Below, one piece after another: positions 1,030-15,671 of a stretch of 32,000 bases of DNA. Under the pieces are notes generated by a model, which had not been told where the DNA came from, ran no database searches, and was given only the letters and a program-made list of their open reading frames with translations. Each line of letters starts with the position of its first letter. Position 1 is the first letter of the stretch. Both the position numbers and the translations under genes were made by a program. The DNA comes from Ktedonobacterales bacterium (GTDB taxonomy: Bacteria > Chloroflexota > Ktedonobacteria > Ktedonobacterales > JADMIN01), in contig CP126532.1 in NCBI GenBank assembly GCA_030167145.1, forward strand, positions 180,001 through 212,000, read 5' to 3'.

Positions 1030-1054
1030 AGGCTCGCCCGTGGGAAACTCAGCG

Positions 1055-1681
1055 ATGCGGTTGCGCTTATTGTCACGCATCACGGTGATTAGCCTTGTGG
1101 TGATTGTCGCCGCCATCATGATCATCCATAGCGCAACCACCTCGGCCAGCAAACCTGCGCCAAAGCTCGATGGCATTGACCTCGGCTCGGCGCCCGCCCC
1201 TGCATTTTCACTAGTGGATCAATCTGGCGCAACCATCTCGCTTGACCAGCTCCAAGGGCATCCGGTTGTGGTGACATTCCTCTACACCCATTGCCCAGAC
1301 GCCTGCCCGCTCACCGCGGAGAAACTTCACGCGGCCGCTCAATCGCTTGGTCCGAAGGCTAGCAAGGTCTCTTGGGTGATAATTAGCATTGACCCTGTCG
1401 GTGACACCCCAACAGCCGCCAGTCAGTTTCTTGCGGCCCATCATCTGGATGGCGAGGCACACTATCTGCTGGGAACCCAGGCACAGCTTCAACCCATTTG
1501 GGACGCCTATCACATCGCCGTCTCACCAAACAGCGACGATGGCCAGGCTCAGGTCAGTGGGATCTCGCATAGCGTTGGTGTCTACATTCTCGATGCCCAG
1601 GGGCGCGAACGCATCTTTCTCGATGCCGAATTTGCCCCCTCGACGCTCGCTTCCGATCTCCGTGCGCTCACCACCTCGTGA
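1055..1681 (+). CDS. sco1: SCO1/SenC-family copper chaperone (thioredoxin fold) for CuA assembly
   Basis: N-terminal membrane anchor (RITVISLVVIVAAIMII), CxxxC copper motif in YTHCPDACP, and a downstream His in ISHSVGVYILD. Positioned between ctaB and oxidase subunit II. ATG 1055 chosen; GTG 1016 is an alternative. Confidence 0.85.
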   Translation: MRLRLLSRITVISLVVIVAAIMIIHSATTSASKPAPKLDGIDLGSAPAPAFSLVDQSGATISLDQLQGHPVVVTFLYTHCPDACPLTAEKLHAAAQSLGPKASKVSWVIISIDPVGDTPTAASQFLAAHHLDGEAHYLLGTQAQLQPIWDAYHIAVSPNSDDGQAQVSGISHSVGVYILDAQGRERIFLDAEFAPSTLASDLRALTTS

Positions 1682-1870
1682 CGCACGTTTAGGCAATTGT
1701 CAGGATTGGAGGGCAAACTGCAAGGGTCAGCGTAAGGCAAATGCGCTACACTGGCCCTTACGGCTAGGCAAGCTCGCCAATCAGCGGTATCATAGGTTTT
1801 GTTGTTTTTCAAAACACGCCGATGGCGGCGCTACTCATGCGTCGCCCTACTGGAGTCGAGGATTTGTAGC

Positions 1871-2938
1871 ATGCGGTTAGGTTCAAAGACCAGACGGTGG
1901 GCCGGCTTCGGCCTCCTCGCATTAATCGCGACAGTCGGATTGAGCGCCTGCGCCGACAACGGCGCCAACTTCCTACAACCGGCTGGTCCGATTGCCGACA
2001 CGGAATCCGGCATCTTCTGGTGGCTCGTTCTGGGCGTCTCCACAGTCGTATTCGTCATCGTGACGACTTGGCTCTTGATCTCGATTGTCCGCTTCCGCGA
2101 CCGCCCCGGCGCACCTGAAGCGCACCAGACACCCGGTAACAACAAGGTCGAGCTTGCCTGGACCATTGCGCCCGCCATCTTGCTGTTCATCGTGCTCGGT
2201 TTCACCATCAGCACCATGTTCAAGCTCGATACCCCGCACAACAGCCAGGGCCAGCAAGTGCCCATCACCCTGCACGTCACCGCCATTGGGCATCAGTGGT
2301 GGTGGGAATTTGTCTATCCCGACCAAAAGATCGTCACCGCCGACGAAATGTATATTCCCACCGGCCAGGCTGTTGAAGTGACGCTCCTCTCCGACAATGT
2401 CATCCACAGCTTCTGGGTACCTGCCATCGCCGGCAAAGTTGACGTCATCCCTGGGCACCAGAACCAAATGTGGATGCTGGCAGATAAGGCTGGCCAGTAT
2501 CGCGGCGAATGCACCGAGTATTGCGGCAACCAGCACGCCCATATGGACTTCGCCGTTGTCGCCGTGTCCAGCGACGCCTTCAACACCTGGGTGACGGGCC
2601 AGCAAGCTCAAAGCACCAAACTTGTGGAGGGCGACCCCAACTACCAGGGCCAGCAAGTCTTCCTGACCTCCGGCTGCGTCGGCTGCCACAACATTAATGG
2701 CACCACCGCCCCTGGCAACAAGATCGGCCCGAACCTCACCCACTTCGGCAGCCGCCAATGGATCGCTGGCGAAGTGCTGAGCAATACTCCCGCGAACCTG
2801 GCGGACTGGATTCTGCACGCGCAAGACGTCAAGCCCGACGTGGACATGCCGAGCTTCGACGGCACCATGCCTCCCAATCCAGCACTCTCACCAACACAGA
2901 TCACCGAACTGGTGGCCTATCTTGAGAGCCTGAAATAG
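1871..2938 (+). CDS. ctaC: Cytochrome c oxidase subunit II with fused C-terminal cytochrome c domain (caa3-type)
   Basis: Lipobox-like signal (VGLSAC), two TM helices, CuA ligands (HSFWVP ... CTEYCGNQHAHM), and a C-terminal CVGCH heme c motif with a distal DMPSF Met. RBS GAGGA lies 8 nt upstream of ATG 1871. Confidence 0.93.
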   Translation: MRLGSKTRRWAGFGLLALIATVGLSACADNGANFLQPAGPIADTESGIFWWLVLGVSTVVFVIVTTWLLISIVRFRDRPGAPEAHQTPGNNKVELAWTIAPAILLFIVLGFTISTMFKLDTPHNSQGQQVPITLHVTAIGHQWWWEFVYPDQKIVTADEMYIPTGQAVEVTLLSDNVIHSFWVPAIAGKVDVIPGHQNQMWMLADKAGQYRGECTEYCGNQHAHMDFAVVAVSSDAFNTWVTGQQAQSTKLVEGDPNYQGQQVFLTSGCVGCHNINGTTAPGNKIGPNLTHFGSRQWIAGEVLSNTPANLADWILHAQDVKPDVDMPSFDGTMPPNPALSPTQITELVAYLESLK

Positions 2939-2993
2939 CGAGTCGCATCGTTCCAGGTGGGCGCTTGGGGTCAGGCGCTTGCCCTAACGTATG

Positions 2994-3011
2994 GGATGGC
3001 CTCTGCCATCC
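2994..3011 (+). other. Intercistronic stem-loop between ctaC and ctaD (7-bp stem ggatggc/gccatcc, loop ctct)
   Basis: Perfect inverted repeat read directly from the sequence. No U-tract follows, so it is not a canonical terminator. Function unknown. Confidence 0.35.
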
Positions 3012-3042
3012 TGTATGACCCCAATCTACAGAGGAGGACCCA

Positions 3043-4794
3043 ATGGCGGTCGGTACCATTGCGACCCGAGGTCGGGCCGCGAGAAAACGCTGGAGTCAGA
3101 CACCACTCGGCTCCTGGATCACCACGACAGACCATAAGAAAATTGGCATTCTCTACATTTACACCGGGATCATCTTCTTCTTCCTTGGGGGCATCGAGGC
3201 GGCATTGATCCGCTGGCAACTCTCAACTCCCGATGGCAAGTTGCTCCGGCCCGATGTCTATGACCAGATCTTCACGATGCACGGAACGACCATGATCTTC
3301 CTCTTCGTGATGCCCACCATGGCCGGATTCGGCAACTATTTGGTACCGCTGATGATCGGTGCCCGCGACATGGCCTTCCCTCGCCTGAACGCCCTTGGAT
3401 ACTGGTTGCTGTTCTTCGGCGGAATCTTCCTCTATAGTAGCTTCATTTCGGGTTCCGCCCCGAATGCTGGCTGGTTTAGCTATGCCCCACTAACCGAATG
3501 CACCCCTGCGGCGCTTTCCCAGGGCCTTGGCTCGCTCACCTTCCAGCAACAGGCAGCAGCAGCGGCACAGGCAGCGGCACAAGGCGGCCAGGGCTGCTTC
3601 GCCCCCGGTCAAAACGCCGACTTCTGGATTATCGGCATTAACCTGCTCGGCATCGCCTCGCTCCTTGGCGCGCTCAACTTCATCGTCACCATCCTGCGCC
3701 TCCGCGCCCCCGGCATGACCATCAACCGCATGCCGCTGTTCGTCTGGATGACCATGGTGACATCCTTCCTCCTCGTCTTCGCGCTGCCCAGCCTCACCGT
3801 CGCCAGCGCTCTGCTCCTCTTTGACCGCCATCTCGGCACACACTTCTATCAAGCGGGCTTTGGCGGTGACCCACTGCTCTGGCAACACCTCTTCTGGTCG
3901 TTCGGCCACCCGGAGGTGTATATCCTTATCTTACCCGCATTCGGCATGATTTCGGAGATTCTGCCCGTCTTCTCCGGCAAGCCGATCTTCGGCTACACCT
4001 TTGTCGCGTGGTCTGGCGTCGCCATTGGCTTCCTCAGTTTCACCGTCTGGGCGCACCATATGTTCGCCGTGGGCCTGCCGACCGTCGCCCAGGCGTTCTT
4101 TGCTAGCTCGACGACCCTGATTGCCATCCCGACCGCCGTCAAGATCTTCAACTGGGTCGCCACCACCTGGCACGGTAGGCTGAGATTTCACACGCCAATG
4201 CTCTTCGCCACCGGCTTCATCGCCATGTTCCTCATCGGCGGATTGAATGGTGCGGCGCTCGGTGTGGTCCCCTTCGACTACCAAATCACCGATACTTACT
4301 TCGTCGTCGCCCACATCCACTACGTACTCTTTGGTGGTGCTGCGATGGCGATCTTCGGCGGAATCTTCTACTGGTTCCCGAAGATGTCTGGCCGCAGGCT
4401 CAACGAGTCGCTTGGCAAGATCCAGTTCTGGCTGATGCTCATCGGCATGAATATCGCGTTCTTCCCGATGCACATTCTCGGCCTGATCGGCATGCCACGC
4501 CGTCAGTACACCTATCCGCCAAACCTCGGTTGGGATGGCCTGAACCTGCTCTCCAGCATCGGCGTCCTCTTCCTGATCGCGGCCTTCCTAGTGTTCCTCT
4601 TCAACTTTGTGAACACCATTCGCAAGCCGGCCGATCAGCCTGCCGACCCCTGGGACGCATTCACCCTCGAATGGGCCACCAGTTCACCGCCGCCGACCGA
4701 AAACTTCGAGACGATCCCCGTCGTCCGCAGCCGCCGCCCACTCTGGGATCAAAAACACCCCGACAAAGCGGACTGGCGCACAGCGGCGCACTAG
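3043..4794 (+). CDS. ctaD: Cytochrome c oxidase subunit I (heme-copper oxidase catalytic subunit)
   Basis: Hallmark motifs WFFGHPEVY-like (LFWSFGHPEVYILILPAFG), WAHHMF and HIHYVLFGG, with 12+ TM helices. Strong RBS GAGGAGGA before ATG 3043. Carries an unusual Gln/Ala-rich insertion (see findings). Confidence 0.96.
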   Translation: MAVGTIATRGRAARKRWSQTPLGSWITTTDHKKIGILYIYTGIIFFFLGGIEAALIRWQLSTPDGKLLRPDVYDQIFTMHGTTMIFLFVMPTMAGFGNYLVPLMIGARDMAFPRLNALGYWLLFFGGIFLYSSFISGSAPNAGWFSYAPLTECTPAALSQGLGSLTFQQQAAAAAQAAAQGGQGCFAPGQNADFWIIGINLLGIASLLGALNFIVTILRLRAPGMTINRMPLFVWMTMVTSFLLVFALPSLTVASALLLFDRHLGTHFYQAGFGGDPLLWQHLFWSFGHPEVYILILPAFGMISEILPVFSGKPIFGYTFVAWSGVAIGFLSFTVWAHHMFAVGLPTVAQAFFASSTTLIAIPTAVKIFNWVATTWHGRLRFHTPMLFATGFIAMFLIGGLNGAALGVVPFDYQITDTYFVVAHIHYVLFGGAAMAIFGGIFYWFPKMSGRRLNESLGKIQFWLMLIGMNIAFFPMHILGLIGMPRRQYTYPPNLGWDGLNLLSSIGVLFLIAAFLVFLFNFVNTIRKPADQPADPWDAFTLEWATSSPPPTENFETIPVVRSRRPLWDQKHPDKADWRTAAH

Positions 4795-4859
4795 CATGAG
4801 TGATGTGGAGGGCTTGGCAAGTATTGCTGTCCGCCTTCCACATCGCAATCAAGCGCATA

Positions 4860-4882
4860 GGGGCAGGGTCGCTTCTTGCCCC
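4860..4882 (+). promoter_or_regulatory. GC-rich stem-loop immediately downstream of ctaD (ggggcaggg ... cttcttgcccc)
   Basis: Stem of 8-9 bp (two G-U pairs) with a 5-nt loop, read from the sequence. It abuts ATG 4883. No U-run follows. Could be an mRNA stability or processing element or an attenuator. Confidence 0.35.
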
Positions 4883-4912
4883 ATGCGCCAGCACCGGAGC
4901 AACGCAGCATCT

Positions 4913-5485
4913 ATGTGGACCAAGACAGCGCCACGGCCAACGACACGCAGCATCGTCATTTTCGCCGTCACCACCGTGATTACGGCGAGCCTGCTGGCGC
5001 TGATGTGGGTACGGCTCATCCAAGCTGGCAATGCCGCGAGCAACGTCAATACATCGCCGCTCATCAATCGGGCCGCTCCCGACTTTGTCATCACCCCCTG
5101 GAACATGCCGACCAGCCAAACCATCAGGTTAGATAGCTTTAAAGGCCATCCAGTTGTTGTCAACTTCTGGGGATCGTGGTGCGCCGAATGTCAGGAAGAG
5201 CAGGCGATATTCCAGACCGTCTGGCAGCAATATCAGAATCAGGGCGTCCAGTTCATCGGTATTGCCTACAACGACAAGCAGGATACCGGCTCAGCCTATC
5301 TCAAGCAGTATGCCGTCACCTATCCTGCTGGTCCGCCGCAGGCCAACACCACGCCGGTTGACTATTCCGTAACCGGCGCGCCGGAGACCGTTTTTATCGG
5401 GCGCGATGGCATCGTCAAAGACAAAGTCCTCGGCCCGATGGACCAAGCATCCCTGGAACGCGAGATTCAGCAACTGTTGAAGTAG
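4913..5485 (+). CDS. Membrane-anchored thiol:disulfide oxidoreductase, TlpA/ResA/CcmG family
   Basis: N-terminal basic segment plus TM (SIVIFAVTTVITASLLALMWV) and thioredoxin active site WGSWCAECQ. Neighbours ccdA and the ccm genes. ATG 4913 preferred (GGAG upstream); 4883 and 4796 are alternatives. Confidence 0.85.
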   Translation: MWTKTAPRPTTRSIVIFAVTTVITASLLALMWVRLIQAGNAASNVNTSPLINRAAPDFVITPWNMPTSQTIRLDSFKGHPVVVNFWGSWCAECQEEQAIFQTVWQQYQNQGVQFIGIAYNDKQDTGSAYLKQYAVTYPAGPPQANTTPVDYSVTGAPETVFIGRDGIVKDKVLGPMDQASLEREIQQLLK

Positions 5486-5520
5486 TCGAGTAGCGCATCA
5501 CGCAAGCGGGAGATACTACT

Positions 5521-6306
5521 GTGGAAACGTTGACACATTTGGGATGGGGAGCAGCGCTCGTCGCCTTCGGCGCCGGCCTCGTTTCCTTCTTTTCCCCGTG
5601 TGTCGCGCCGCTCGTGCCAGCTTACATCGGCTACCTCTCTGGCACGTCAGCCCCCACTTCGAGCGGTGGATCAGCCGTGGCGGTCACTGTGCATCGCAAG
5701 TGGCTCAACCCCGCCCTTGTACCCTGCACACTGTTCATCAGCGGATTCTCGCTCGCGTTCATTACTCTCGGCTTGATCTCCGCCAGCTTTGGCGGTCTCA
5801 TCGTCGCCTATCGTCCGGTGCTTGAAACCCTGGCAGGCATTGTCATGCTCGCTATGGGCGCGTTCCTGCTTAACCTGCTGCCTCAGGGCGTTACCCGCCT
5901 GCTGATGCGCGAGCGGCGCATCCATCTGGGCAATTCGCGTCTCAGTGGCGGCATCCTGCGCGGAGCAGCCCCTGTGCTGCTCGGCATCGTCTTCGCCGCC
6001 GGGTGGACGCCCTGCATCGGACCAGTGCTCGCCGCCATCTACGCCTTCGCGGGCGCTTCCGGCGACCGAGGCACAGGTACCCTGCTTCTGGCATTTTACT
6101 CGCTCGGTTTCGCCCTGCCATTTCTGGCGGTTGGCCTGAGTTGGTCTGTTGGCCTGCGCGCGCTCACTTGGTTCCGCAAGCACGGCCAGATCGTCACGAC
6201 CGTCACAGGTGTCACGCTCATCACGCTTGGCATCCTCTATCTCGCGGGCGAGGCATCGCTGTTCGCCACCTGGGCACAGCAGCTACCCTCGTTCAGCCTG
6301 CGCTAG
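5521..6306 (+). CDS. ccdA: Cytochrome c biogenesis reductant transporter CcdA (DsbD-core family)
   Basis: Six-TM protein with the two conserved Cys-containing motifs FFSPCVAPLVPAY and GWTPCIGPVLAAI. GTG start with GGGAG RBS 8 nt upstream. Confidence 0.9.
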   Translation: METLTHLGWGAALVAFGAGLVSFFSPCVAPLVPAYIGYLSGTSAPTSSGGSAVAVTVHRKWLNPALVPCTLFISGFSLAFITLGLISASFGGLIVAYRPVLETLAGIVMLAMGAFLLNLLPQGVTRLLMRERRIHLGNSRLSGGILRGAAPVLLGIVFAAGWTPCIGPVLAAIYAFAGASGDRGTGTLLLAFYSLGFALPFLAVGLSWSVGLRALTWFRKHGQIVTTVTGVTLITLGILYLAGEASLFATWAQQLPSFSLR

Positions 6307-6336
6307 CGAGTCTGTTTGCTGGCAAAGAAGGGACAC

Positions 6337-6792
6337 ATGTTGCTCGCGCTTTCGATCCTGATGCGCACGGCGCACCTCATAGCCGGAGCCGTTTGGGTCG
6401 GGGGTAGCGTGATATATTTAGCTGTTATCATTCCGGGCCTGCGGTTGGGCTCCGCCAGCTCGCAAACCAGTGCGGCGATAGCCGCGCTCTTCCGTCGAGT
6501 AGTCAACATCTGTATCGGCGTCGAGCTTCTAACCGGCGTCTATCTGATTTTTGACCGCTTGAGCACCGTCAGTGTCGGCACAGCCTATATCGCGGTTCTG
6601 GTCGTCAAAATCGCGGCGGCGCTGGCGATGATCGCATTGGCGCTCTACCAGGCGCAGGAAGCACGGCGTCCAGCCAAGTATCGCGGACGCTTCTGGCGTC
6701 AGGTGCCGCGCTGGATTCTGGGCCTCGGCCTGTTGACATTCTTCCTGGGTGCGACCCTGGTAGGACTGTTCGACACCGCACTCTTACGGTAG
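6337..6792 (+). CDS. Four-TM membrane protein, CopD-like (HLxxGAVWVGG motif); function unconfirmed
   Basis: TM1 motif TAHLIAGAVWVGGSV resembles the CopD / copper-resistance-D family signature. RBS AAGAAGGGA precedes ATG 6337. Lies between ccdA and ccmE. Confidence 0.5.
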   Translation: MLLALSILMRTAHLIAGAVWVGGSVIYLAVIIPGLRLGSASSQTSAAIAALFRRVVNICIGVELLTGVYLIFDRLSTVSVGTAYIAVLVVKIAAALAMIALALYQAQEARRPAKYRGRFWRQVPRWILGLGLLTFFLGATLVGLFDTALLR

Positions 6793-6800
6793 CAACGCTC

Positions 6801-7292
6801 ATGAAGAGGAGAGATGGAGTCGGCTCCATGCAAATAGAACAGATCGCGCAACCATCCAGCATCCCCACACCCACACGGGCGCGGCGTCGCAAATTGCCAT
6901 GGGGCTTTCTCATCGCTGGCATCGCCATCGCGGGAGCCGTGCTGTACCTCGTCTTCGCCAACACCAGCGCCTCCGCCGAGTACTACATGACGATCAAAGA
7001 GTTGCGCGCCTGCACCACCTGCTCCGCGCGGGACGTTCGCGTCGCTGGCACCGTCGTTCCCAACTCCGTTGTCAAGAGCGACCAAACGCAAATCATTCAC
7101 TTCAGCATCTCCGATGCTGGTGGCGCGCTTCCCGTCGTCTACTCTGGCACCGTACCCGACATCTTCCGCGCGGGCGTCCAAGTCGTCGTCGAGGGCAAAC
7201 TTGATAGCCATGGCGTCTTTCAGGCGCAGACCCTGCTCGCCAAATGTCCATCCAAGTTCCAGTCCGCCACACCACCCGCATACAGCAATTAG
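6801..7292 (+). CDS. ccmE: Cytochrome c maturation heme chaperone CcmE, Cys-type variant
   Basis: N-terminal membrane anchor and an OB-fold-like body (VRVAGTVVPNSV ... IFRAGVQVVVEGKL) that aligns with E. coli CcmE. The C-terminal LLAKCPSKF occupies the place of LAKHDENY. ATG 6828 (better RBS GGAG) is an alternative start. Confidence 0.85.
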   Translation: MKRRDGVGSMQIEQIAQPSSIPTPTRARRRKLPWGFLIAGIAIAGAVLYLVFANTSASAEYYMTIKELRACTTCSARDVRVAGTVVPNSVVKSDQTQIIHFSISDAGGALPVVYSGTVPDIFRAGVQVVVEGKLDSHGVFQAQTLLAKCPSKFQSATPPAYSN

Positions 7293-7301
7293 GAGCCATC
7301 C

Positions 7302-9305
7302 GTGCATTTCTCCGACCTTGGCGCGATCGCGCAGCTTCTGGCGTTCATTTTCGCCGTATATGCGCTTCTTGCCTCTCTCCTTGGCGGCATCCGGCAACAA
7401 TCGGCCCTGCTTGCCAGTGGGCGGCGCGCCGTGCTCATGGTCGCGGGCTTCCTCCTGATTGCCGCTATCGCCCTCATCGTCTCCTTCCTTCAGCGCGACT
7501 TCGGCCTGCGCTATGTTGCCGAGCATTCCAGCACTGCGATGCCCTGGTACTATACCCTCGCCGCGTTCTACGGCGGCCAAGAAGGTTCACTCCTCTACTG
7601 GACCACTATGCTTGCCATCTTCTCCTCAGTCGCGGTCCTGCTGCACCGCCGCGCCCCCGCTGGCCTCATGCCCTATGTCGTCGCGGTGCTCATGACGATT
7701 GATGGCTTCTTCCTCTTCGTCCTCAATTTCGTCACCACGCCCTTCGGCCGTCTCCGCATCGCCCCCACCGACGGCCAGGGCCTCAATCCTATCCTGCAAG
7801 ACCCTGGCATGCTCGTCCATCCACCGATGCTGCTCATGGGCTACATGAGCTGGTCCATACCCTTCGCCTTCGCCATGGCCGCCATGATCAGCGGCAGACT
7901 CGATGGCGCCTGGCTCCGCGCCATCCGCCGCTGGACCCTCGTCGCCTGGAGCATCCAAACCACTGGCCTGCTGCTCGGCGCGTGGTGGGCTTATCATGTC
8001 CTTGGCTGGGGCGGCTACTGGGGCTGGGATCCCGTAGAGAACGCGGCACTGCTACCCTGGCTCACCGCGACCGCATTCCTCCACTCCATCATGGTCCAGG
8101 AGCGTCGTGGCTCCCTCAAAGTCTGGAATCTTGGCCTCATCCTGGCTACCTTTGGCCTCTCGCTCTTCGGCACCTTCGAGGTCCGCAGCGGTATCATTAC
8201 CTCTGTCCATTCCTTCGCCTATTCCGCGATTGGCCCGTACTTCCTGGGTTTCCTTGCCTTCGCGGTACTCGGCTCGCTCGCGATCTTCATCTACCGCCTC
8301 CCACGCCTGCATCCCGAACACGAATTCGACTCCTTCGTCTCTCGTGAAGGCAGCTTCCTGCTCAACAACTTCCTGCTCACTGGCATTGCCTTTGTCGTCT
8401 TCTGGGGCACCATCTTCCCCATCATCTCCGAGACCGTTCGTGGCCAGACCATGACCGTCGGCACCGCCTTCTATCAGCAAGCCACAGGACCACTGTTCCT
8501 CCTGCTGATCTTCACCATGGGCATCGGCCCGCTTCTTGCCTGGCGACGCGCCTCACTCACCAGCATTTGGCGTAACTGTCGTTGGCCAGCTCTTGCCGCC
8601 GCGCTCTGCGCCATCATCCTGCCAGTGCTCGGCGTCACCAACATCCTCGCCAACATTGGCTTCGCTGTCTGCGCCTTCGCCGCTGGCACGATCATCTACG
8701 AACTGTGGCGCGGCGTTCGTGTTCGCCACGCCCACGGCGAGGCATATCACCGCGCCCTCGTCACGCTTATCAGCCGTCACCGCCAGCGCTACGGCGGCTA
8801 CCTCGTCCATCTCGGTCTCATCACCCTGGCGATTGGCGTCATCGGCTCGCAGTTCTTCCAGGCGAAGAACGAATTCATCCTCCACAAAGGCGACACAGCG
8901 CACATCAACGGGTACGCCATCACCTATCAGGGCATCAGTGGCCACATGGACGGCGATGTCCAGGTCATCCAGACGCGCTTCGGCGTCTCCTACAACGGCC
9001 AGCACATGCAAGACATCGCTCCCGGCGAACGCATCTTCCCCGGCTTCGAGAGTCAGCCTACCAGCATTGTCTCGATTACCACCCATAACCTGTCGGACCT
9101 CTACGTCTTCCTGTCCGGGTATGAAGGCACAGACCTCGCCTCCATCAAAGTCTTCATCAACCCACTCGTTCCGCTTGTCTGGCTTGGTGGCCTGCTGATG
9201 CTCTTCGGTGGCATCGTCTGCTGGTGGCCGCCTCGTCCGCTAGCAAAACGCATCACCGAGCGCACGCCTCCCACATCCGCGAAGCCAGTGGAGGTGATGG
9301 CATGA
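7302..9305 (+). CDS. ccmF: Cytochrome c heme lyase subunit CcmF
   Basis: 667-aa polytopic protein with the WWD domain WGGYWGWDPVENAALLPWL and conserved His residues. GTG start with AGGAG RBS. Its stop overlaps the ccmH start (ATGA). Confidence 0.93.
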   Translation: MHFSDLGAIAQLLAFIFAVYALLASLLGGIRQQSALLASGRRAVLMVAGFLLIAAIALIVSFLQRDFGLRYVAEHSSTAMPWYYTLAAFYGGQEGSLLYWTTMLAIFSSVAVLLHRRAPAGLMPYVVAVLMTIDGFFLFVLNFVTTPFGRLRIAPTDGQGLNPILQDPGMLVHPPMLLMGYMSWSIPFAFAMAAMISGRLDGAWLRAIRRWTLVAWSIQTTGLLLGAWWAYHVLGWGGYWGWDPVENAALLPWLTATAFLHSIMVQERRGSLKVWNLGLILATFGLSLFGTFEVRSGIITSVHSFAYSAIGPYFLGFLAFAVLGSLAIFIYRLPRLHPEHEFDSFVSREGSFLLNNFLLTGIAFVVFWGTIFPIISETVRGQTMTVGTAFYQQATGPLFLLLIFTMGIGPLLAWRRASLTSIWRNCRWPALAAALCAIILPVLGVTNILANIGFAVCAFAAGTIIYELWRGVRVRHAHGEAYHRALVTLISRHRQRYGGYLVHLGLITLAIGVIGSQFFQAKNEFILHKGDTAHINGYAITYQGISGHMDGDVQVIQTRFGVSYNGQHMQDIAPGERIFPGFESQPTSIVSITTHNLSDLYVFLSGYEGTDLASIKVFINPLVPLVWLGGLLMLFGGIVCWWPPRPLAKRITERTPPTSAKPVEVMA

Positions 9306-9865
9306 ACTGGACATCCCTAATCCGCCGCCCAGCATTCCTCATCGCCCTTGCTGTGCTCATCATCATCGGGCTAGTCTGGGGCATCACCGCCGTTCGCGCC
9401 GCTCAGCCTCTGACACTCGATCAGCACGTCTATTCCATCGCCAACCAGCTACAATGCCCCGTCTGCAATGGAGAATCCGTCGCCGACTCGCCATCACCTG
9501 TCGCCCAGGAAATTCGCTCGGTCATCCGCGAACAGATCATCGAGGGCAAGTCGGACCAGCAAATCCTCAGCTACTTCCACCAGCACTACGGCGATAGCAT
9601 CCTCGAAAGCCCGCCAAAACAAGGCTTCACATCGCTCATCTGGCTCGCGCCGATCATCATGCTCCTCGCGGGCCTCGTCCTCCTATGGAGCGTCGCGCGT
9701 GAATGGAACGCACGTCCGAAACTTGCCGGTGACCCAGATACGGGTGCAGACACCGTCCTGGAGCTTACCGCCGACGAGCGCCAGCGTTACCTTAGGCAGC
9801 TACAACACGAGCTTGACCTTGAAACCATCCAGAATCTACCCGCGACGAAGGAGGTAAGCGCATGA
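9302..9865 (+). CDS. ccmH: Cytochrome c maturation thiol oxidoreductase CcmH (CycL-type)
   Basis: Signal/anchor, LRCxxC-type motif LQCPVCNGESVADS, a second TM (LIWLAPIIMLLAGLVLLW) and a short cytoplasmic tail. ATG 9302 overlaps the ccmF stop. The ORF-track extension to 9224 is rejected. Confidence 0.85.
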   Translation: MNWTSLIRRPAFLIALAVLIIIGLVWGITAVRAAQPLTLDQHVYSIANQLQCPVCNGESVADSPSPVAQEIRSVIREQIIEGKSDQQILSYFHQHYGDSILESPPKQGFTSLIWLAPIIMLLAGLVLLWSVAREWNARPKLAGDPDTGADTVLELTADERQRYLRQLQHELDLETIQNLPATKEVSA

Positions 9866-10332
9866 TGCCGATTCTTTTCGCCATCCTCCTTGGTCTCACT
9901 GCCGTCGTCATCGTCATCTATCCTTTGCTGGGTCTGAATACTTCTCACGTCGAAGAAGCCACTCCGGCCCCCATCGCCGACGCAGCCGAACATGAGCGCA
10001 CTGCCAAACAGGCCCTGCTTGACGTGGACTTCGACTACCGCCTCGGCAATCTCGAAGCCACCGACTACGCCGACCTGCGCGAGCGCTATGAGCGACGTGC
10101 GCTCTCCGCGATGAAAGCGCGCTACGACCACGAGCATGAACTCGATGCGCTCATAGATCAGCAGCTAGCGCACCTTCGCGCCCAACAAAATGCGCAGCGC
10201 GACCCCCACATCTCGACGAAATCCCATCGCCGCTCACTATCTCCTTCTACAACCACGCGGCGATCAGCCAAGACTGCTAGTGATTCATCTTCAGCGCAAG
10301 GCATCCGCGCGCGGCGGCGGAGGGGAGTATAG
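9862..10332 (+). CDS. Uncharacterised single-TM protein embedded in the ccm operon (possible CcmI-N-like module)
   Basis: N-terminal TM (ILFAILLGLTAVVIVIYPLLGL), then a helical motif ERTAKQALLDVDFDYRLGNLEATDYADLRERY and a basic disordered tail. Strong RBS AAGGAGG. Its start overlaps the ccmH stop. Confidence 0.7.
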   Translation: MMPILFAILLGLTAVVIVIYPLLGLNTSHVEEATPAPIADAAEHERTAKQALLDVDFDYRLGNLEATDYADLRERYERRALSAMKARYDHEHELDALIDQQLAHLRAQQNAQRDPHISTKSHRRSLSPSTTTRRSAKTASDSSSAQGIRARRRRGV

Positions 10333-10333
10333 C

Positions 10334-11971
10334 ATGCGGCGACTCACTCCCATCCTTGCCCTATCTCTGCTTGCCGTGGCGCTTTGCCTCGTCTTGCTGC
10401 CTGCATCTCATGTCCAGGCAGCCGCGCGCCTTGATACCACCGGTGCCCTCACCGTCGCCGTAGAGAACATCACCCATGACAATGCGCCCGTAGACAGCCA
10501 GACTATCACGCTTCAGGCGCTCCAGGGCGGCACAACGCAGGATGCCGCCACCGTAACCACCAATAACGCTGGCCGCGCGACTTTCACTGGCCTCGATGCC
10601 AGCGGCAACACCACCTACGCCATCTACACCCGCTTCCAGGGCGGCCTCTTCTTTGGCTCTGCCATCAGCTTCGATACCAGCGCAACGCAGCAAACCACTC
10701 TCACTGTGGCTGATGCTACCACCAGCGACGCGGCGCTGCGCATCACCAGCGCCAACATCCTTATCAACCAGGTAAATAAAACCAAGGGCCTGATCTCCGT
10801 CGGAGAGTTCCTAACCTTCGCCAACACCGGCAACACCGCTTATGTCGGCAACCTGACACCTGCCAATGGCAAGCCAATGAATCTGCTGCGCTTCTCGCTT
10901 CCACCCGACGCAACCAACCTCACCCTTGGCGCTGGTTTCGCCCAGACGCAGGCCGTTCAGGTTGATACCGGCTTTGGCGCCAATGCCACCGTCCCACCTG
11001 GCGCCTCGAACTTCGCCTTCGCCTTCGATGTCCCCTACACTGGAACCTCCTACACCTTCACCTACAAAGCCGAATATCCCACCGACAAGGTGCTCGTCCT
11101 CTCGTCGCCGGGCATGAACGCGACCTCCACCAACCTTGCCCCTCAACCGCCCATCAGTGCCAGTGGCCAGAGCTTTGCCGTGCTCTCCGGCGGCACACAG
11201 CCGTCCGGCAACACCGTCACCTTTGCACTGAATCATTTACCGCTTGCTGGCGAAGACCCAGATTTTGATTTCCGCCTGCTGCTCATCGTCGGCGCAATCC
11301 TCACCCTGCTGCTACTCATCCTACTTGGCCTCTACGTCCGTCGTGGCGCGCTGGTTGTAGCCTTGCGTCCGGCTCCGCGCACCTCGCGTACTCGCGCGTA
11401 TCTCCCTACCAGCGACCAAACCCGCACAGCCGAGCGCAAGCAACTCCTCCAAGCCCTGCTCGACCTCGACACCGCTCGCACATCTGGCGCAGTGAGCGAG
11501 AACAAATACCGCGCCCGCCAATCCGAACTCCGCGCTTCCCTCCGCGCCCCCCTCGCCGCTGATACCGATTCACCCAACCTTGGCGAGAATACCAAAGCGC
11601 ACGCTCCCAGCCGCGCTCCTGACCGCCCGACCACGCCATCGGCAACTGACTCTCTCGCCAAATCGGCAGAATCGGCAACTCACGCCCAGACACTCATGAA
11701 TGAAAAATCGGCAGAATCGGCAACTCCGGCAACTGCCACAATCCAAAATCGGGGCGAAAACGGCGAAAATTCTCCGGCCAATTCCCGTCATAACCCGCCA
11801 TTTCCCCCCAACCACACCGCAACATCGGCAGAATCGGCAACTGGCGTTGCTGTCTCCGTAAATGAAAAATCGGCAGAATCGGCAACTGTCAGCGCGACCA
11901 CATCGGCCATTCCGGCCACCGCCACCAGCAAGAACAGGCGATCCAAATCGCCGCGAGGAGGAGCAAGATGA
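10334..11971 (+). CDS. Uncharacterised secreted/membrane protein embedded in the ccm operon. Layout: signal peptide, beta-rich ectodomain (carboxypeptidase-regulatory-like first domain), TM, repeat-containing cytoplasmic tail
   Basis: Signal peptide with AxA site (SHVQA-AARL). A Thr/Asn/Gly-rich beta-type region of about 340 aa. TM LLLIVGAILTLLLLILLGLYV followed by RR. The tail carries ERKQLLQALLDLD and four KSAESAT repeats. RBS GGAGGGGA precedes ATG 10334. Its stop overlaps the ccmA start (ATGA). Confidence 0.75.
   Translation: MRRLTPILALSLLAVALCLVLLPASHVQAAARLDTTGALTVAVENITHDNAPVDSQTITLQALQGGTTQDAATVTTNNAGRATFTGLDASGNTTYAIYTRFQGGLFFGSAISFDTSATQQTTLTVADATTSDAALRITSANILINQVNKTKGLISVGEFLTFANTGNTAYVGNLTPANGKPMNLLRFSLPPDATNLTLGAGFAQTQAVQVDTGFGANATVPPGASNFAFAFDVPYTGTSYTFTYKAEYPTDKVLVLSSPGMNATSTNLAPQPPISASGQSFAVLSGGTQPSGNTVTFALNHLPLAGEDPDFDFRLLLIVGAILTLLLLILLGLYVRRGALVVALRPAPRTSRTRAYLPTSDQTRTAERKQLLQALLDLDTARTSGAVSENKYRARQSELRASLRAPLAADTDSPNLGENTKAHAPSRAPDRPTTPSATDSLAKSAESATHAQTLMNEKSAESATPATATIQNRGENGENSPANSRHNPPFPPNHTATSAESATGVAVSVNEKSAESATVSATTSAIPATATSKNRRSKSPRGGAR
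11638..11887 (+). repeat. Intragenic direct repeats: 4 perfect copies of atcggcagaatcggcaact (19 bp), two extended to 27 bp
   Basis: Copies at 11662-11680, 11707-11725, 11824-11842 and 11869-11887, with spacing 45/117/45 bp. The 27-bp identity is 11699-11725 versus 11861-11887. A partial copy atcggcaact lies at 11638-11647. In frame the repeat encodes (K/T)SAESAT. Confidence 0.9.
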
Positions 11972-12738
11972 GCCTCCGCATGGCAAATATCCCAGACCCC
12001 TCCCTCTCACTCCCGCCTGTAGGCCATCAGAGCGCCGTCGAAGTCGCCAACGTCGGCAAGGTCTACGGCGTCCGCCCTGTGCTGCGCGGCATCAGCTTCT
12101 CAGTTCCCACCGGCGTCTCACTTGCGCTGCTCGGTCCTAATGGCGCGGGCAAGACCACCCTGCTCCGTGCCCTCGCCACCCTGACCACCTTCACCACTGG
12201 AACCGCCAGCATCCTTGGCCTAGACCTCCGCGCAGACGCTGCGCAGATCCGCCACATCATCGGGTATGTCGGCCATCAGCCACACCTCTACGATGAACTA
12301 ACCGCCTCTGAAAATCTGCTCTTCTTCGCCCGCATGTACGGCCTACCCGACGGCCCCCGCCGCACCACTGAGCTACTCGAACGGGTCGGCCTGCGCCTCA
12401 AGACCAGCGACCGCGTCCGCACGCTCTCGCGCGGCCAAGTGCAACGCCTCGCCCTGGCCCGAGGTATCCTGCACGATCCTGCTGTGTTGCTACTCGACGA
12501 ACCCGATACTGGTCTCGACGAAGACGCTGCGGCCCTGCTGCAAACCATTATCAACGAGCGCCAGCAGCGCGGCCAGACCACACTCTTCACCACCCACCAG
12601 CTAGATCGCGCCTTATCGCTCAGCACACAAAGCGTCGTCCTTGTCAATGGCCGCCTCGTCTACGCTGGTCCGGCAGCAGATCTGACGCCCGCCGAGGTGC
12701 GCGCCCTCTACGCAACCAGCAAGAGGAGGACGCCATGA
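11968..12738 (+). CDS. ccmA: Heme exporter ABC transporter ATP-binding protein CcmA
   Basis: Walker A GPNGAGKTT, signature LSRGQVQRLALA, Walker B LLLDEP. RBS GAGGAGGA. Followed directly by ccmB/ccmC with overlapping stop and start codons. Confidence 0.88.
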   Translation: MSLRMANIPDPSLSLPPVGHQSAVEVANVGKVYGVRPVLRGISFSVPTGVSLALLGPNGAGKTTLLRALATLTTFTTGTASILGLDLRADAAQIRHIIGYVGHQPHLYDELTASENLLFFARMYGLPDGPRRTTELLERVGLRLKTSDRVRTLSRGQVQRLALARGILHDPAVLLLDEPDTGLDEDAAALLQTIINERQQRGQTTLFTTHQLDRALSLSTQSVVLVNGRLVYAGPAADLTPAEVRALYATSKRRTP

Positions 12739-13409
12739 CATTCCGCCTCTTCTGGAACCAGATGCTCGCCATCCTCTGGAAAGACCTGCGCTGCGAACTC
12801 CGCACCCGCCAGGTCTGGATCAGCATGGCCATGTTCGCCCTGCTCGTGCTGATAGTCTTCAATTTCGCCTTTGACCTGCGCGTAGACAATAAAGCCGCCG
12901 TCGCGCCTGGCGCGCTATGGATCGCCTTCGTCTTTGCCAGCACGCTCGGCCTTGGACGCACCATCACTGCCGAACAAGAGAAAGGCTTGATGGACCGTCT
13001 GCTGCTCTGCCCGGTAGACCGCAAGGCCATCTACTTCGCGAAGTTACTCGGCAACCTTGTCTTCATTGGCGTGGTGGAGGTCATTGCCGTCCCCATCTTC
13101 GCCGTGCTTTACGATCTGCCAGTCTTCACCGGCGGCATCATCCCCATCGTCGTCCTCGGCACGATTGGCATTGCCGCGCTCGGCACCATCTTCTCCGCTA
13201 TTGCGGCGAACACCCAGGCGCGGGAGGTATTGCTCCCCCTGCTCCTGTTTCCCTTGCTTGTTCCTGTCGTTATAGCCGCCGTCAAGGCAACCCAGGCTCT
13301 GGTCAACCCTGTCAGTGGTGATGCGCCCTGGATTGGACTTATCGCTGCCTTCGATGTCATCTTCCTCAGTATCTCAGCCGTCACGTTCCAATACGTGATT
13401 GAGGAGTGA
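12735..13409 (+). CDS. ccmB: Heme exporter membrane protein CcmB
   Basis: Six-TM protein with a CcmB-like N-terminus (ILWKDLRCELRTR) and the EQEKGLMDRLLLCPV motif typical of the family. ATGA overlap with ccmA. Confidence 0.85.
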   Translation: MTFRLFWNQMLAILWKDLRCELRTRQVWISMAMFALLVLIVFNFAFDLRVDNKAAVAPGALWIAFVFASTLGLGRTITAEQEKGLMDRLLLCPVDRKAIYFAKLLGNLVFIGVVEVIAVPIFAVLYDLPVFTGGIIPIVVLGTIGIAALGTIFSAIAANTQAREVLLPLLLFPLLVPVVIAAVKATQALVNPVSGDAPWIGLIAAFDVIFLSISAVTFQYVIEE

Positions 13410-13413
13410 AACC

Positions 13414-14172
13414 GTGCAAATTGCAAGTTCGCGCCCGGCCCAACCGGGCACGGCGACACCAACACCCCTGCCGCCATGGCTTATGCCAGTCCGCCGTTAT
13501 GGCGAATATGTTCTCGGCGCCGCCGCCGCCCTGAGCATCCTCGCCACCATCTGGGCCGCGTTCGTATACGCCCCCACCGACGCCCTGCAAGGGAATGTAC
13601 AGCGCATCGAATATTTCCATGTCCCGATGGCGTGGGTGGCCTATCTGGCCTTTTTCGTCGTCTTTGTTGCCAGTATTCTCTATCTCTGGCGCAAAAACGC
13701 CCGCTGGGATGTGCTAGCCCGCGCCAGCGCCGAAGTTGGCACTGTCTTCACGACCCTCGTTCTTATCACTGGGTCGCTCTGGGGGCGCACCGTCTGGGGC
13801 ACCTGGTGGCAGTGGGATGCCCGGATGACCACCACGCTCATTCTTTGGTTCATCTATGTAGGGTATCTGCTGCTTCGCTCCTACACCGGCCTATCCGAGG
13901 GGGGAGCACGCGCCGCCGCGGTTTTGGGCATCATCGGCTTCATTGACGTGCCAATCAACTACCTCTCAGTAACATGGTGGCGCACATTGCACCCCAGTTA
14001 TCAGGTGCCGCTTGGCAGCGAAGCACAGGCCCCCGCCTCTGTCGTCCTGGCGCTCATGCTGGGACTTCTGGCTTTCACCCTGCTCTACGCCTTCCTAACT
14101 GTGCAGGTCTATCGGCTTAACAAAATCCAGCGCGCGGCCCAGGTGCTGCGAGTACGCGCAGAGATGGAATAG
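13414..14172 (+). CDS. ccmC: Heme exporter / heme-handling protein CcmC
   Basis: WWD motif WGTWWQWDARMTTTLILW plus flanking conserved His residues (YFHVPMAW, RTLHPS). GTG 13414 with GAGGAG 8 nt upstream is preferred over TTG 13399. Confidence 0.9.
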   Translation: MQIASSRPAQPGTATPTPLPPWLMPVRRYGEYVLGAAAALSILATIWAAFVYAPTDALQGNVQRIEYFHVPMAWVAYLAFFVVFVASILYLWRKNARWDVLARASAEVGTVFTTLVLITGSLWGRTVWGTWWQWDARMTTTLILWFIYVGYLLLRSYTGLSEGGARAAAVLGIIGFIDVPINYLSVTWWRTLHPSYQVPLGSEAQAPASVVLALMLGLLAFTLLYAFLTVQVYRLNKIQRAAQVLRVRAEME

Positions 14173-14184
14173 GAGTTGCCACAC

Positions 14185-14358
14185 ATGAACGACAACGGAT
14201 TTCTCATCGCCGCCTATCTCATCGTATGGCTGGGATTACTCGGCTATCTAGGCTGGGTTACGCTTCGCATGCGTGGCGTACAGGCAGACCTCCAGGCTGT
14301 TCGCGAACTGGTCGAGCAGCGAGATCAGCCGAACGCCAGTACGCCGCACCACGAGTGA
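14185..14358 (+). CDS. ccmD: Small single-TM heme exporter protein CcmD
   Basis: 57 aa with a single TM (FLIAAYLIVWLGLLGYLGWVTL) followed by basic residues, immediately after ccmC. AGGAG lies 9 nt upstream of ATG 14185. Confidence 0.7.
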   Translation: MNDNGFLIAAYLIVWLGLLGYLGWVTLRMRGVQADLQAVRELVEQRDQPNASTPHHE

Positions 14359-14417
14359 ACGAGGTCCCGCACGGCTCACGTTAATCGCCGTTACCGGCAG
14401 CAGCAAGAGCAAAAAGT

Positions 14418-14449
14418 GGCCAGGAATGAAGAAGCATCTAGTCCTGGCC
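14418..14449 (+). terminator. Stem-loop after ccmD (8-bp stem ggccagga/tcctggcc, 16-nt loop), possible end of the ccm operon
   Basis: Perfect inverted repeat 60 nt downstream of the ccmD stop, followed by gccagtcttt. The large loop and weak U-tract keep confidence low. Confidence 0.3.
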
Positions 14450-14458
14450 GCCAGTCTT

Positions 14459-14467
14459 TGATACAAT
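14459..14467 (+). promoter_or_regulatory. Candidate extended -10 promoter (TGaTACAAT) for the ctaF-like/ctaE pair
   Basis: tgatacaat matches the TGnTAnnnT extended -10 and lies 73 nt upstream of ATG 14540, in the only sizeable gap of the cox/ccm block. No convincing -35. Confidence 0.35.
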
Positions 14468-14539
14468 GGTAGATGCTTCAAAGCAGAGTACGCGCTCACC
14501 CTACCGTGAGCGGAAAACCCTAGATCGAGGAGAGACCAC

Positions 14540-14998
14540 ATGCCCGAGAACTATGAGGTGGTGTACACCCATCCGACTGGGGCCACCGCTACATTCATCC
14601 GCCACGATGGCGAGCTTGACGCCCTCGCCAAAGCGCTCGACTCAGAGCAATTCTGGGTCTTCAAGAATGTGAAGTCCTTGTTGGTACGCAATGACGTAGG
14701 CGACCTCGCCGAAGCGAATCGCTTGATGCGCGCCATCGGCTTCAGCGAAACCGTCCGCGAAATTACCAAACCTCAGCCGGTCGCTGTCCCCGAGCCAGTT
14801 GCAGTCGCCGCGCCCGTCGAAGAACATCACGGTTTGCACCTACCCGGCCCAAGCTACTGGCCAATACTCCTGGGAGCCTCCGTCACCATTGCGCTTGGTG
14901 GATGGTTGACATTCCAGACACTTTCCATCACCGTCATCGCCATCGGCATGGTGCTGACCTTCATCTGCATGATCGGCTGGGGTCTCGAACAATACTGA
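14540..14998 (+). CDS. Cytochrome oxidase small subunit, CtaF(subunit IV)-like 2-TM C-terminus fused to an unknown ~100-aa N-terminal soluble domain
   Basis: The C-terminal HLPGPSYWPILLGASV ... two-TM segment resembles the SPHSWWP-containing second half of actinobacterial CtaF. Sits directly upstream of ctaE. RBS GAGGAGA. Confidence 0.6.
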   Translation: MPENYEVVYTHPTGATATFIRHDGELDALAKALDSEQFWVFKNVKSLLVRNDVGDLAEANRLMRAIGFSETVREITKPQPVAVPEPVAVAAPVEEHHGLHLPGPSYWPILLGASVTIALGGWLTFQTLSITVIAIGMVLTFICMIGWGLEQY

Positions 14999-15053
14999 TT
15001 GGCTCCGCCCAATCCGTTGTAATAGCACTACCACGGAAGAGGAATTATCCATC

Positions 15054-15671
15054 ATGAGCACCGTCGTCGCTCCCGCCCAGACGCACGAAGAAAACAAACC
15101 GCAGAGCCGTAGCATCGGCTGGTATGGCATGGTCTTCTTCATCTCATCTGAGGCCGTATTCTTCGCCAACCTCATCGCAGTCTATCTCTATCTGCTTGTC
15201 CGCGCAGGACAGTGGCCACCCAAAGGTACACCAGCGAGCGCTGAGCTTGACATCCCGCTCGCCGTCGTCAACACGATTATCCTGCTCTCCAGCAGCATCC
15301 CCATGCACTACGCTGGGCGCTCCATCGCTCGCGGCAATAAGCGTGGCCTCACCATCGGCCTGATCCTCACGATCATTCTGGGCGCCACCTTCATCAGCAT
15401 CCAGCTCTATGAATATGTGAACAACGCCTTTGGCCCAAGCACCGGCGTTTTCGGCTCCGTCTTCTACACGCTCACCGGCTTCCACGGCGCACACGTCACC
15501 GTCGGTCTGCTCTTCCTCACCGTCTGTTTCGTGCGCTCGCTGCGCGGCGACTTCTCCAAAGATCACCACTTCGCGGTTCAAGCCGCCGAGATGTACTGGC
15601 ACTTCGTAGACTTCGTCTGGGTCTTCATCGTATCCCTGGTATACTTCCTTCCGCTGGCCCTCGCGCACTAG
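15054..15671 (+). CDS. ctaE: Cytochrome c oxidase subunit III
   Basis: Five-TM short-form subunit III with FYTLTGFHGAHVTVG and YWHFVDFVWVF motifs. RBS GGAAGAGGA. Confidence 0.92.
   Translation: MSTVVAPAQTHEENKPQSRSIGWYGMVFFISSEAVFFANLIAVYLYLLVRAGQWPPKGTPASAELDIPLAVVNTIILLSSSIPMHYAGRSIARGNKRGLTIGLILTIILGATFISIQLYEYVNNAFGPSTGVFGSVFYTLTGFHGAHVTVGLLFLTVCFVRSLRGDFSKDHHFAVQAAEMYWHFVDFVWVFIVSLVYFLPLALAH

Follow-up and report, generated by a model that had tools for sequence, protein, structure and literature searches.

A split, TPR-free candidate for CcmI in the cytochrome c maturation cluster of a Ktedonobacterales bacterium

What takes the place of CcmI in a System I cytochrome c maturation (ccm) cluster that encodes no protein with tetratricopeptide repeats (TPR)? 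The question is raised by a 32,000-nucleotide stretch from a Ktedonobacterales bacterium (GenBank assembly GCA_030167145.1, contig CP126532.1, positions 180,001 to 212,000 of the forward strand), which is called the window below, with positions counted from its first nucleotide. On the plus strand of the window, a complete System I ccm cluster is inserted into a caa3 oxidase operon, between cox1 and cox3, and two genes, ORF1 and ORF2, lie inside this cluster between ccmH and ccmA. The original prediction, made from the sequence alone, considered both to be of unknown function and proposed that they are a split, non-TPR analogue of CcmI or, alternatively, an assembly factor of the caa3 oxidase.

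CcmI is the least understood part of System I. It has two transmembrane (TM) helices joined by a cytoplasmic loop, which contains a leucine zipper in R. capsulatus, and, on the periplasmic side, a TPR domain with a presumed role as chaperone of apocytochrome c in the CcmFHI complex (PMC3884852, PMC3601427). E. coli can do without the TPR domain, Rhodobacter requires it, and archaea and mitochondria lack it (PMC3601427, PMC9084895). On balance, we favour the reading that ORF1 and ORF2 form a split CcmI-like pair of the CcmF/H heme ligation complex, in which the periplasmic module is not a TPR domain. The parts of the two proteins are as follows.

9862..10332, plus strand: ORF1 (156 aa), predicted CcmI N-terminal-like protein with an N-out TM helix, a cytoplasmic helix motif and a basic Ser/Arg-rich tail
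9862..9951, plus strand: ORF1 TM helix, residues 1-30, with the family-invariant Pro21 (IYPLLG), from hydropathy and conservation
9976..10140, plus strand: ORF1 cytoplasmic helix motif, residues 39-93 (ADAAEHERTAKQALLDVDFDYRLGNLEATDYADLRERYERRA...), a conserved block that aligns with the ORF2 module
10334..11971, plus strand: ORF2 (545 aa), with a signal peptide, two beta-sandwich domains, a TM helix, a putative CcmI-N-like cytoplasmic helical hairpin and a disordered tail
10334..10423, plus strand: ORF2 signal peptide or N-terminal anchor, residues 1-30 (...SHVQA/AA), from hydropathy and a predicted helix at residues 5-20
10439..10708, plus strand: ORF2 beta-sandwich domain 1, residues 36-125, transthyretin/CarboxypepD_reg-like, from PF13620 matches in relatives and predicted strands
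10736..11233, plus strand: ORF2 beta-sandwich domain 2, residues 135-300, with the signatures LLRFxLP, VPPG and PYxG, from invariant columns and a model pLDDT above 90
11258..11368, plus strand: ORF2 TM helix, residues 309-345, followed by RR, from hydropathy and a predicted helix at residues 313-343
11411..11542, plus strand: ORF2 helical hairpin in the cytoplasm, residues 360-403 (TAERKQLLQALLDLDTARTSGAVSENKYRARQSELRASL); hhalign shows its homology with the ORF1 motif
11546..11968, plus strand: ORF2 low-complexity cytoplasmic tail with 4-5 dispersed ATCGGCAGAATCGGCAACT copies (SAESAT), from composition; not conserved in the family

ORF1 and the module that it shares with ORF2

By its sequence, ORF1 can be recognised as a relative of the CcmI N-terminal domain that has one TM and no TPR. 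Its sole hydrophobic segment in the hydropathy profile comprises the N-terminal residues 1-30, as predicted, and its C-terminus is cytoplasmic. The view that it has no known function does not hold, since the NCBIfam profile of the CcmI N-terminal domain, TIGR03142, matches the window protein with E = 2.9e-4 and 21.1 bits over profile positions 4-86 of 118, and two of its relatives are named in IMG as ‘cytochrome c-type biogenesis protein CcmI’. The match spans TM1 and the cytoplasmic loop, and does not include TM2. The curated NCBI cutoff of this profile is 29.3 bits, which is exceeded by the ORF1 relative of locus L004 (33.4 bits), and 6 of the 19 ORF1-like proteins from related loci are matched at E ≤ 0.01, with a best value of 4.7e-8. 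The ORF1 homologues number 142, the named ones being from Ktedonobacterales, and the family is already known in part, through automatic annotation as CcmI.

ORF1 has no second TM helix that would continue into a periplasmic domain, an arrangement seen on one polypeptide only in the fused relative P0267 (described below). TM2 has its equivalent in the signal peptide of ORF2, which belongs to a separate gene. The basic tail of ORF1 shows little conservation except for its terminal RRRRG. The ORF1-like proteins of three related loci (L010:1747-2229, L091:7577-8050 and L092:7555-8004) end in a cytoplasmic CxxC...CxxC zinc ribbon, which is absent from the window ORF1.

The original prediction noted a related helix just after the TM segment of both proteins, and profile comparison bears this out. 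With broad family alignments, hhalign matches 86 columns of the ORF1 family to the C-terminal module of the ORF2 family (97% probability, P = 9.4e-11), while the control comparison of the ORF1 family with the ORF2 ectodomain gives P = 0.06. The signal is weak when Ktedonobacterales-only alignments are used (P = 2e-4, 32 columns). TIGR03142 itself also matches 4 of 33 ORF2-family proteins through their C-terminal TM and helix (best E = 2.4e-7), as in the relative P0300, where residues 304-386, comprising the TM and C-terminal helix, match profile positions 2-78. On this profile evidence, the TM-helix modules of ORF1 and ORF2 are homologous to the CcmI N-terminal domain and to each other, and ORF2 is, by sequence, an exported beta-sandwich protein fused to a second CcmI-N-like anchor.

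The two modules share only ~13% amino-acid identity at the profile level, which indicates that the duplication is ancient. The reported DNA-level similarity of the two helices is real, with 17 of 21 nucleotides identical, but it reflects nothing beyond the same amino acids and a shared codon bias, and an origin of the shared helix by a DNA repeat or a recent duplication was therefore rejected. The cytoplasmic helix of ORF2 relatives also gives weak matches to GvpG (PF05120, 10 of 33) and SHOCT (PF09851, 4 of 33). The window ORF2 matches GvpG weakly, far under the gathering score, and does not match SHOCT. Both are amphipathic helix modules of a generic kind, and neither has a connection with cytochrome maturation.

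Architecture of ORF2

The start of ORF2 at position 10334 is supported by the family consensus MRxxR...LL and by an upstream GGAGG. The N-terminal hydrophobic segment covers residues 1-31 in the hydropathy profile (ending VQA/A) and corresponds to TM2 of a natural fusion protein, P0267, which is described below. An AlphaFold2 (AF2) model of residues 1-404, built from a 46-sequence alignment, has a pLDDT of 86.8 and consists of an all-beta region (residues 36-300), a long helix (313-343) and a helical hairpin (360-403). The RR motif after the TM helix places the C-terminus in the cytoplasm. When modelled alone (residues 33-310), the ectodomain is also all beta, with a pLDDT of 93.3 and a pTM of 0.86. 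The order proposed in the original prediction, namely signal peptide, beta-type ectodomain, TM and tail, is thus retained, and the ectodomain is shorter than it had been estimated, ~280 instead of ~340 aa; it contains 15.7% Thr and 7.1% Asn.

The first domain had been suggested to be carboxypeptidase-regulatory-like, and this agrees with the matches of 25 of the 33 ORF2 relatives to PF13620 (CarboxypepD_reg) at E ≤ 0.01 (best E = 1.9e-11), the window copy itself scoring 16.6-17.3 bits, below the Pfam gathering threshold of 32.3 bits. For domain 2 of the window copy, no Pfam or NCBIfam family was found over residues 135-300. The Pfam TPR families have no match in ORF1, ORF2 or the 33 ORF2 relatives, and the AF2 models likewise show a TPR-free, all-beta ectodomain. 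Searches of PDB sequences with the ORF1 and ORF2 family profiles revealed no relative whose structure has been solved, the ORF2 profile retrieving only transthyretin-like, NOMO and SOP4 matches, with E values of at least 0.008.

The window ectodomain lacks Cys and has only two His and two Met, and across the ORF2 family none of these three residues is conserved. The conserved columns are instead occupied by Gly, Phe, Asn, Arg, Leu, Pro and Tyr, including the LLRFxLP, VPPG and PYxG signatures. This pattern argues against heme ligation or thiol chemistry, and in favour of binding or of a function as scaffold. Heme binding and thiol redox activity of ORF2 were rejected on the same grounds, the ectodomain being devoid of Cys and none of its His or Met residues being conserved in the family.

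The tail (residues 405-545) is of low complexity, rich in Ala, Ser, Thr and Pro, and lies outside the conserved part of the family, whose members mostly have 400-480 aa, against 545 aa in the window. The SAESAT repeats of the tail are encoded by an 18-nt unit between positions 11654 and 11887, with two identical 27-mers at 11699 and 11861.

Genomic context of the pair

The ORF2 family is large. In a set of 1.84 billion cluster representatives, its profile matches 8120 at E ≤ 1e-3; at E ≤ 1e-10 there are 4296 matches, and at E ≤ 1e-30 still 1368. The top matches are mostly full-length (~400 aa), and a profile search of a set of 5.8 billion proteins added almost no new members. In the searched databases the members are named only ‘hypothetical protein’ or carry misleading labels.

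All ten contexts examined from distinct ORF2 subfamilies are linked to ccm genes, in varied gene orders, which makes eleven with the window. In the Ktedonobacterales locus L001 the order is that of the window. In L004, L091 and L092, ActD, cytochrome c, CcmH, CcmF, a small ORF1-like protein and an ORF2-like protein are encoded in succession, followed by thioredoxin in L004 and L091, so that the pair lies 3' of Alternative Complex III genes. Other orders are CcmH, CcmF, a 103-aa protein and ORF2-like (L008); CcmF, CcmH, an ORF1-like protein with a zinc ribbon, ORF2-like and CcmABCD (L010); ORF2-like, CcmABCD and thioredoxin (L093); and an ORF2-like gene 3' of CcmD (L009). In P0234, an ORF2 relative with a triple ectodomain is located between CcmF and CcmA. 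P0267, encoded between CcmH and CcmA, is a naturally fused protein in which an ORF1-like N-terminus precedes an ORF2-like part. The order of its segments is TM, CcmI-type helix, TM, ORF2 ectodomain, TM and helix, which is the topology of CcmI with a beta-sandwich in place of the TPR domain and with an additional TM and helix at the end, and it is on this basis that we read ORF1 and ORF2 as a split, non-TPR CcmI-like pair.

A scan of species-representative genomes retrieved 174 relatives, and the contexts, trees and pairing counts refer to the best 80 of these. All 80 are from Chloroflexota, namely Dehalococcoidia/SAR202 metagenome-assembled genomes and closed chromosomes; complete Chloroflexota chromosomes among the genomes found include OZ245324.1, OZ244863.1 and OY762409.1. 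The order ccmH-ccmF-ORF1like-ORF2like is found in 56 of the 80 loci, and in all 56 ccm-linked cases the small gene directly upstream of ORF2 is recognised by a hidden Markov model (HMM) of the ORF1 family. The pair is strictly coupled to ccmH-ccmF in its genomic position, and a fused form exists.

The remaining 24 of the 80 copies (~30%) have no ccm gene within 10 kb, so that part of the ORF2 family does occur outside ccm loci. An ORF1-like gene is missing upstream of 23 of them by the same HMM, and the lone copy that has one is on a 5-kb contig that would exclude ccmF. In a neighbour-joining tree the unlinked copies form two separate clades. In one, the protein stops right past the TM; in the other, the C-terminal helix is kept and the gene lies downstream of squalene/phytoene-synthase-like and FAD-oxidase-like genes. 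These unlinked Dehalococcoidia paralogues are represented by L032, L074 and L046 (about 9950-11200) and by L037, L065 and L024.

Several relatives have unusual architectures. The P0234 protein (915 aa) has three tandem ectodomains, one TM and no C-terminal helix, its cluster has neither ccmH nor an ORF1-like gene, and it may come from outside Chloroflexota, given a nearby OmpA-family gene. In the metagenomic record P0039 (927 aa), ORF2-like, CcmA and CcmB sequences form a single ORF, which is either a real fusion or an artefact of gene calling or assembly at overlapping junctions. In L009, alongside the ORF2-like gene after ccmD, a 466-aa protein is encoded between ccmH and ccmA (L009:4098-5498), with a CcmI-N-like TM and helix, a cytoplasmic zinc ribbon, a second TM and a periplasmic BNR/Ycf48-like beta-propeller. 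It is a second kind of non-TPR CcmI-like protein, and its beta-propeller suggests that CcmI-like proteins can exchange their periplasmic module.

The genes around the pair in the window are listed below; CcmE, CcmF, CcmH, CcmA, CcmB and CcmC were assigned by Pfam.

25-1029, plus strand: UbiA/CtaB
1016-1681, plus strand: Sco1
1799-2938, plus strand: Cox2 with a cytochrome c domain
3043-4794, plus strand: Cox1
4796-5485, plus strand: thioredoxin-like protein
5521-6306, plus strand: CcdA
6316-6792, plus strand: CopD-like membrane protein of 158 aa, from sub-threshold Pfam and NCBIfam matches
6801-7292, plus strand: CcmE
7302-9305, plus strand: ccmF, presumed partner of ORF1/ORF2 (Pfam CcmF_C, Cytochrom_C_asm)
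9302-9865, plus strand: ccmH, presumed partner of ORF1/ORF2 (Pfam CcmH), carrying LQCPVC
11968-12738, plus strand: CcmA
12735-13409, plus strand: CcmB
13399-14172, plus strand: CcmC
14176-14358, plus strand: CcmD
14540-14998, plus strand: 152-aa protein without a family match
15054-15671, plus strand: Cox3

Inspection of the sequence revealed ATGA overlaps at 9302 (ccmF/ccmH), 9862 (ccmH/ORF1) and 11968 (ORF2/ccmA), and a TAGcATG junction at 10330-10336 between ORF1 and ORF2; the ORF coordinates give a further 4-nt overlap (ATGA) at 12735 between ccmA and ccmB. The overlapping or abutting junctions described at 9302, 9862, 10330, 11968 and 12735 are thereby all confirmed, and they indicate translational coupling. 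The genes ccmA, ccmB, ccmC and ccmD (11968-14358), which overlap or abut, follow immediately 3' of ORF2, and a GGAGG-type ribosome-binding site precedes the ATG of both ORF1 and ORF2. Terminator-like sites in the ORF chain do not exceed the shuffled expectation (8 found, 6.9 expected).

The insertion within the caa3 operon thus comprises the thioredoxin-like protein, CcdA, the CopD-like protein, CcmEFH, ORF1, ORF2 and CcmABCD, with CtaB, Sco1 and the cytochrome c-fused Cox2 upstream (window 25-15671), and the layout of L001 is identical. CcmE has the motif CPSKF, in which the heme-binding residue is Cys rather than His, as in the System I* type (PMC3601427). The rarer Phe replaces Tyr in this motif, yet a normal CcmH with a CPVC motif is encoded next door. 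The CopD-like gene directly 5' of ccmE keeps its position in L001 and apparently also in L009. The 152-aa ORF between ccmD and cox3 has a hydrophobic C-terminal half, is conserved in place in L001 and may be a small oxidase subunit.

As stated in the original prediction, no TPR-type CcmI is present in the ccm cluster of the window. A TPR protein does occur 19 kb away on the minus strand, where the region 31184-32000 is the C-terminus of a larger protein running off the window end. It is TPR_12/MalT-like and without a TM, resembles a cytoplasmic regulator, and was rejected as a concealed CcmI. In a limited comparison with E. coli CcmH, the TPR half has no match in the window or in 93 loci, whereas the N-terminal half finds CcmH in 67 of them.

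Proposed role and comparison with known systems

We propose that in Chloroflexota ORF1 and ORF2 together correspond to CcmI, which is the third subunit of the System I CcmF/CcmH/CcmI heme ligation complex. ORF1 would provide the conserved CcmI-1 element, in which an N-out TM helix leads into an amphipathic helix in the cytoplasm. ORF2 would be exported, so as to present its double beta-sandwich on the outer face of the membrane in the position of the TPR domain of CcmI, and would be anchored there by another copy of the TM-plus-helix element. The arrangement of CcmI would then be split in the window at the point where TM2 turns into the ORF2 signal peptide. The two TM helices and the mutually packed cytoplasmic helices would dock the pair onto CcmF/CcmH, and the ectodomain, which would not be heme- or thiol-reactive, may serve as a protein-binding platform that holds apocytochrome c, and possibly also apo- or holo-CcmE, at the CcmF active site. 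The pair would presumably replace, rather than supplement, a TPR CcmI. The split analogue put forward in the original prediction is supported by the TIGR03142 matches, the homology of the modules, the P0267 fusion and the synteny. Heme handling by ORF2, which was part of that idea, is unlikely, and substrate handling by the sandwich and docking of a zipper to CcmF/H are putative roles.

A number of points weigh against this assignment. The window ORF1 scores under the TIGR03142 cutoff (21.1 versus 29.3 bits) and the window ORF2 has no NCBIfam match at all, while the structural matches of ORF2 are weak (best TM-score 0.40) and generic for beta-sandwiches. Physical association of the pair with CcmF/H and binding of apocytochrome are both steps that we infer. 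The CcmI-like part of E. coli CcmH is dispensable (PMC3601427), which makes an accessory or non-essential role plausible. The 24 of 80 Dehalococcoidia family members without a ccm gene within 10 kb also count here, the more so as one unlinked clade keeps the C-terminal helix, which implies that neither the fold nor the helix module is confined to cytochrome maturation. Finally, 32 kb of the genome are in view, and a canonical TPR CcmI may be encoded elsewhere.

The best-surviving alternative, to which we assign a low probability, is that the pair is an accessory of the Ccm machinery and not an apocytochrome chaperone. The pair could stabilise or regulate CcmF/H, dock CcmE or couple CcmF/H to CcmABCD, with the ectodomain acting as a spacer or scaffold. 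The synteny and the homology to the CcmI N-terminal domain fit this role equally, ORF2 is encoded between ccmH and ccmA in more than one lineage and is joined to CcmA and CcmB in the single ORF of P0039, and no feature of the ectodomain points specifically to peptide binding. However, nothing in the data prefers a non-chaperone over a chaperone, and in P0267 the position of the ectodomain matches exactly that of the TPR domain in CcmI.

It is rather improbable that ORF2 is a general envelope beta-sandwich protein (for metal or ligand binding, adhesion or a surface function) and a bystander in the operon, ORF1 alone being a truncated, TPR-less CcmI. The 24 loci outside ccm would fit such a protein, as would the common transthyretin/CarboxypepD_reg fold of domain 1, the weak matches of ORF2 relatives to NikL-type, DUF4198, SdrD_B and pilin-like domains and the IMG label ‘type 1 fimbria pilin’ on one of them. 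Yet the contexts of the eleven independent subfamilies, including the window, are all ccm-linked, ORF1 pairing beside ccmF is complete (56 of 56) and the unlinked copies fall into separate clades; moreover, ORF2 is fused to ORF1 in P0267 and its anchor is itself CcmI-N-like.

The suggestion that the pair serves specifically to assemble the cytochrome c domain of caa3 subunit II, to which the embedding of the ccm cluster in the caa3 operon of the window and L001 lends itself, is very improbable, since none of the 80 Dehalococcoidia/SAR202 loci, and so none of the 56 ccmH-ccmF-linked pairs, has cox1 or cox3 within 10 kb, the pair follows Alternative Complex III genes (ActD, cytochrome c) in L004, L091 and L092, and it lies among ccm genes only in L007, L010 and L093.

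If ORF1 and ORF2 are a split CcmI-like pair, a large family keeps the membrane and cytoplasmic module of CcmI and swaps the TPR domain for an unrelated beta-sandwich and, once, for a beta-propeller. This would separate the conserved part, which would dock, from the replaceable part, which would handle the substrate. The pair is a candidate for the missing CcmI of Chloroflexota, including the abundant marine SAR202 and the soil Ktedonobacteria, and a probable role is thereby assigned to well over a thousand protein clusters now labelled hypothetical. A broader proposal, which has a reasonable though not a prevailing chance of being correct, is that Chloroflexota, and possibly other ccm lineages, use a hitherto unrecognised two-protein CcmI, with the TM and cytoplasmic helix, present twice, as the sole conserved CcmI element and a ribophorin-I-like double beta-sandwich, or the beta-propeller variant of L009, for the TPR domain; the periplasmic module would then be interchangeable, and the membrane and cytoplasmic helix would be the universal docking core. 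In the literature, the coverage of which was incomplete, no paper was found that describes a CcmI without TPR from Chloroflexi, Ktedonobacter or SAR202.

Among solved structures, the top Foldseek match of the ORF2 model in the PDB is ribophorin I/Ost1 of the eukaryotic oligosaccharyltransferase (8b6l_O, 6s7t_E, 6c26_1), with E = 1.5e-9 for the full model and E = 6.8e-8 for the ectodomain, followed by Gram-positive pilins and the N-terminal domain of M1 aminopeptidase. Ribophorin I also has two extracytoplasmic beta-sandwiches, one TM and cytosolic helices, and it too is an accessory subunit, in its case of a membrane enzyme whose substrates are unfolded polypeptides that have just been translocated. 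In contrast, the TM-score is 0.29-0.40, the identity ~10% and the rmsd about 20 Å over the full alignment, and no sequence homology between ribophorin I and ORF2 was found in Pfam or PDB sequence searches. The match is only an architectural analogy, and not evidence of homology.

The C-terminal half of E. coli CcmH, and its paralogue NrfG, presumably occupy the same place in the pathway as the pair, as a periplasm-exposed accessory of the CcmF/CcmH heme lyase. Between E. coli CcmH and the ORF1 family no similarity is detectable (hhalign probability 0.6%), and the cytoplasmic loop of E. coli CcmH is short and without the helix motif of ORF1.

The closest known counterpart is CcmI/CycH of alpha- and gamma-proteobacteria (R. 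capsulatus, B. japonicum, P. aeruginosa), with which the pair shares the N-out TM and cytoplasmic helix. The CcmI-type helix pattern L..L..LE.D...G.I...Y is detected by TIGR03142 in ORF1 relatives and in the C-terminal module of ORF2. The genes also lie beside ccmH/ccmF, a cycHJKL-type linkage, in the window, in the ten contexts and in 56 of the 80 Dehalococcoidia loci, and the fused P0267 reproduces the order of TM, loop, TM and periplasmic domain found in CcmI. The differences from CcmI are that the protein is split over two genes, that a third TM and a second cytoplasmic helix module are present at the C-terminus of ORF2, and that its ectodomain is modelled as two beta-sandwiches in place of the TPR repeats.

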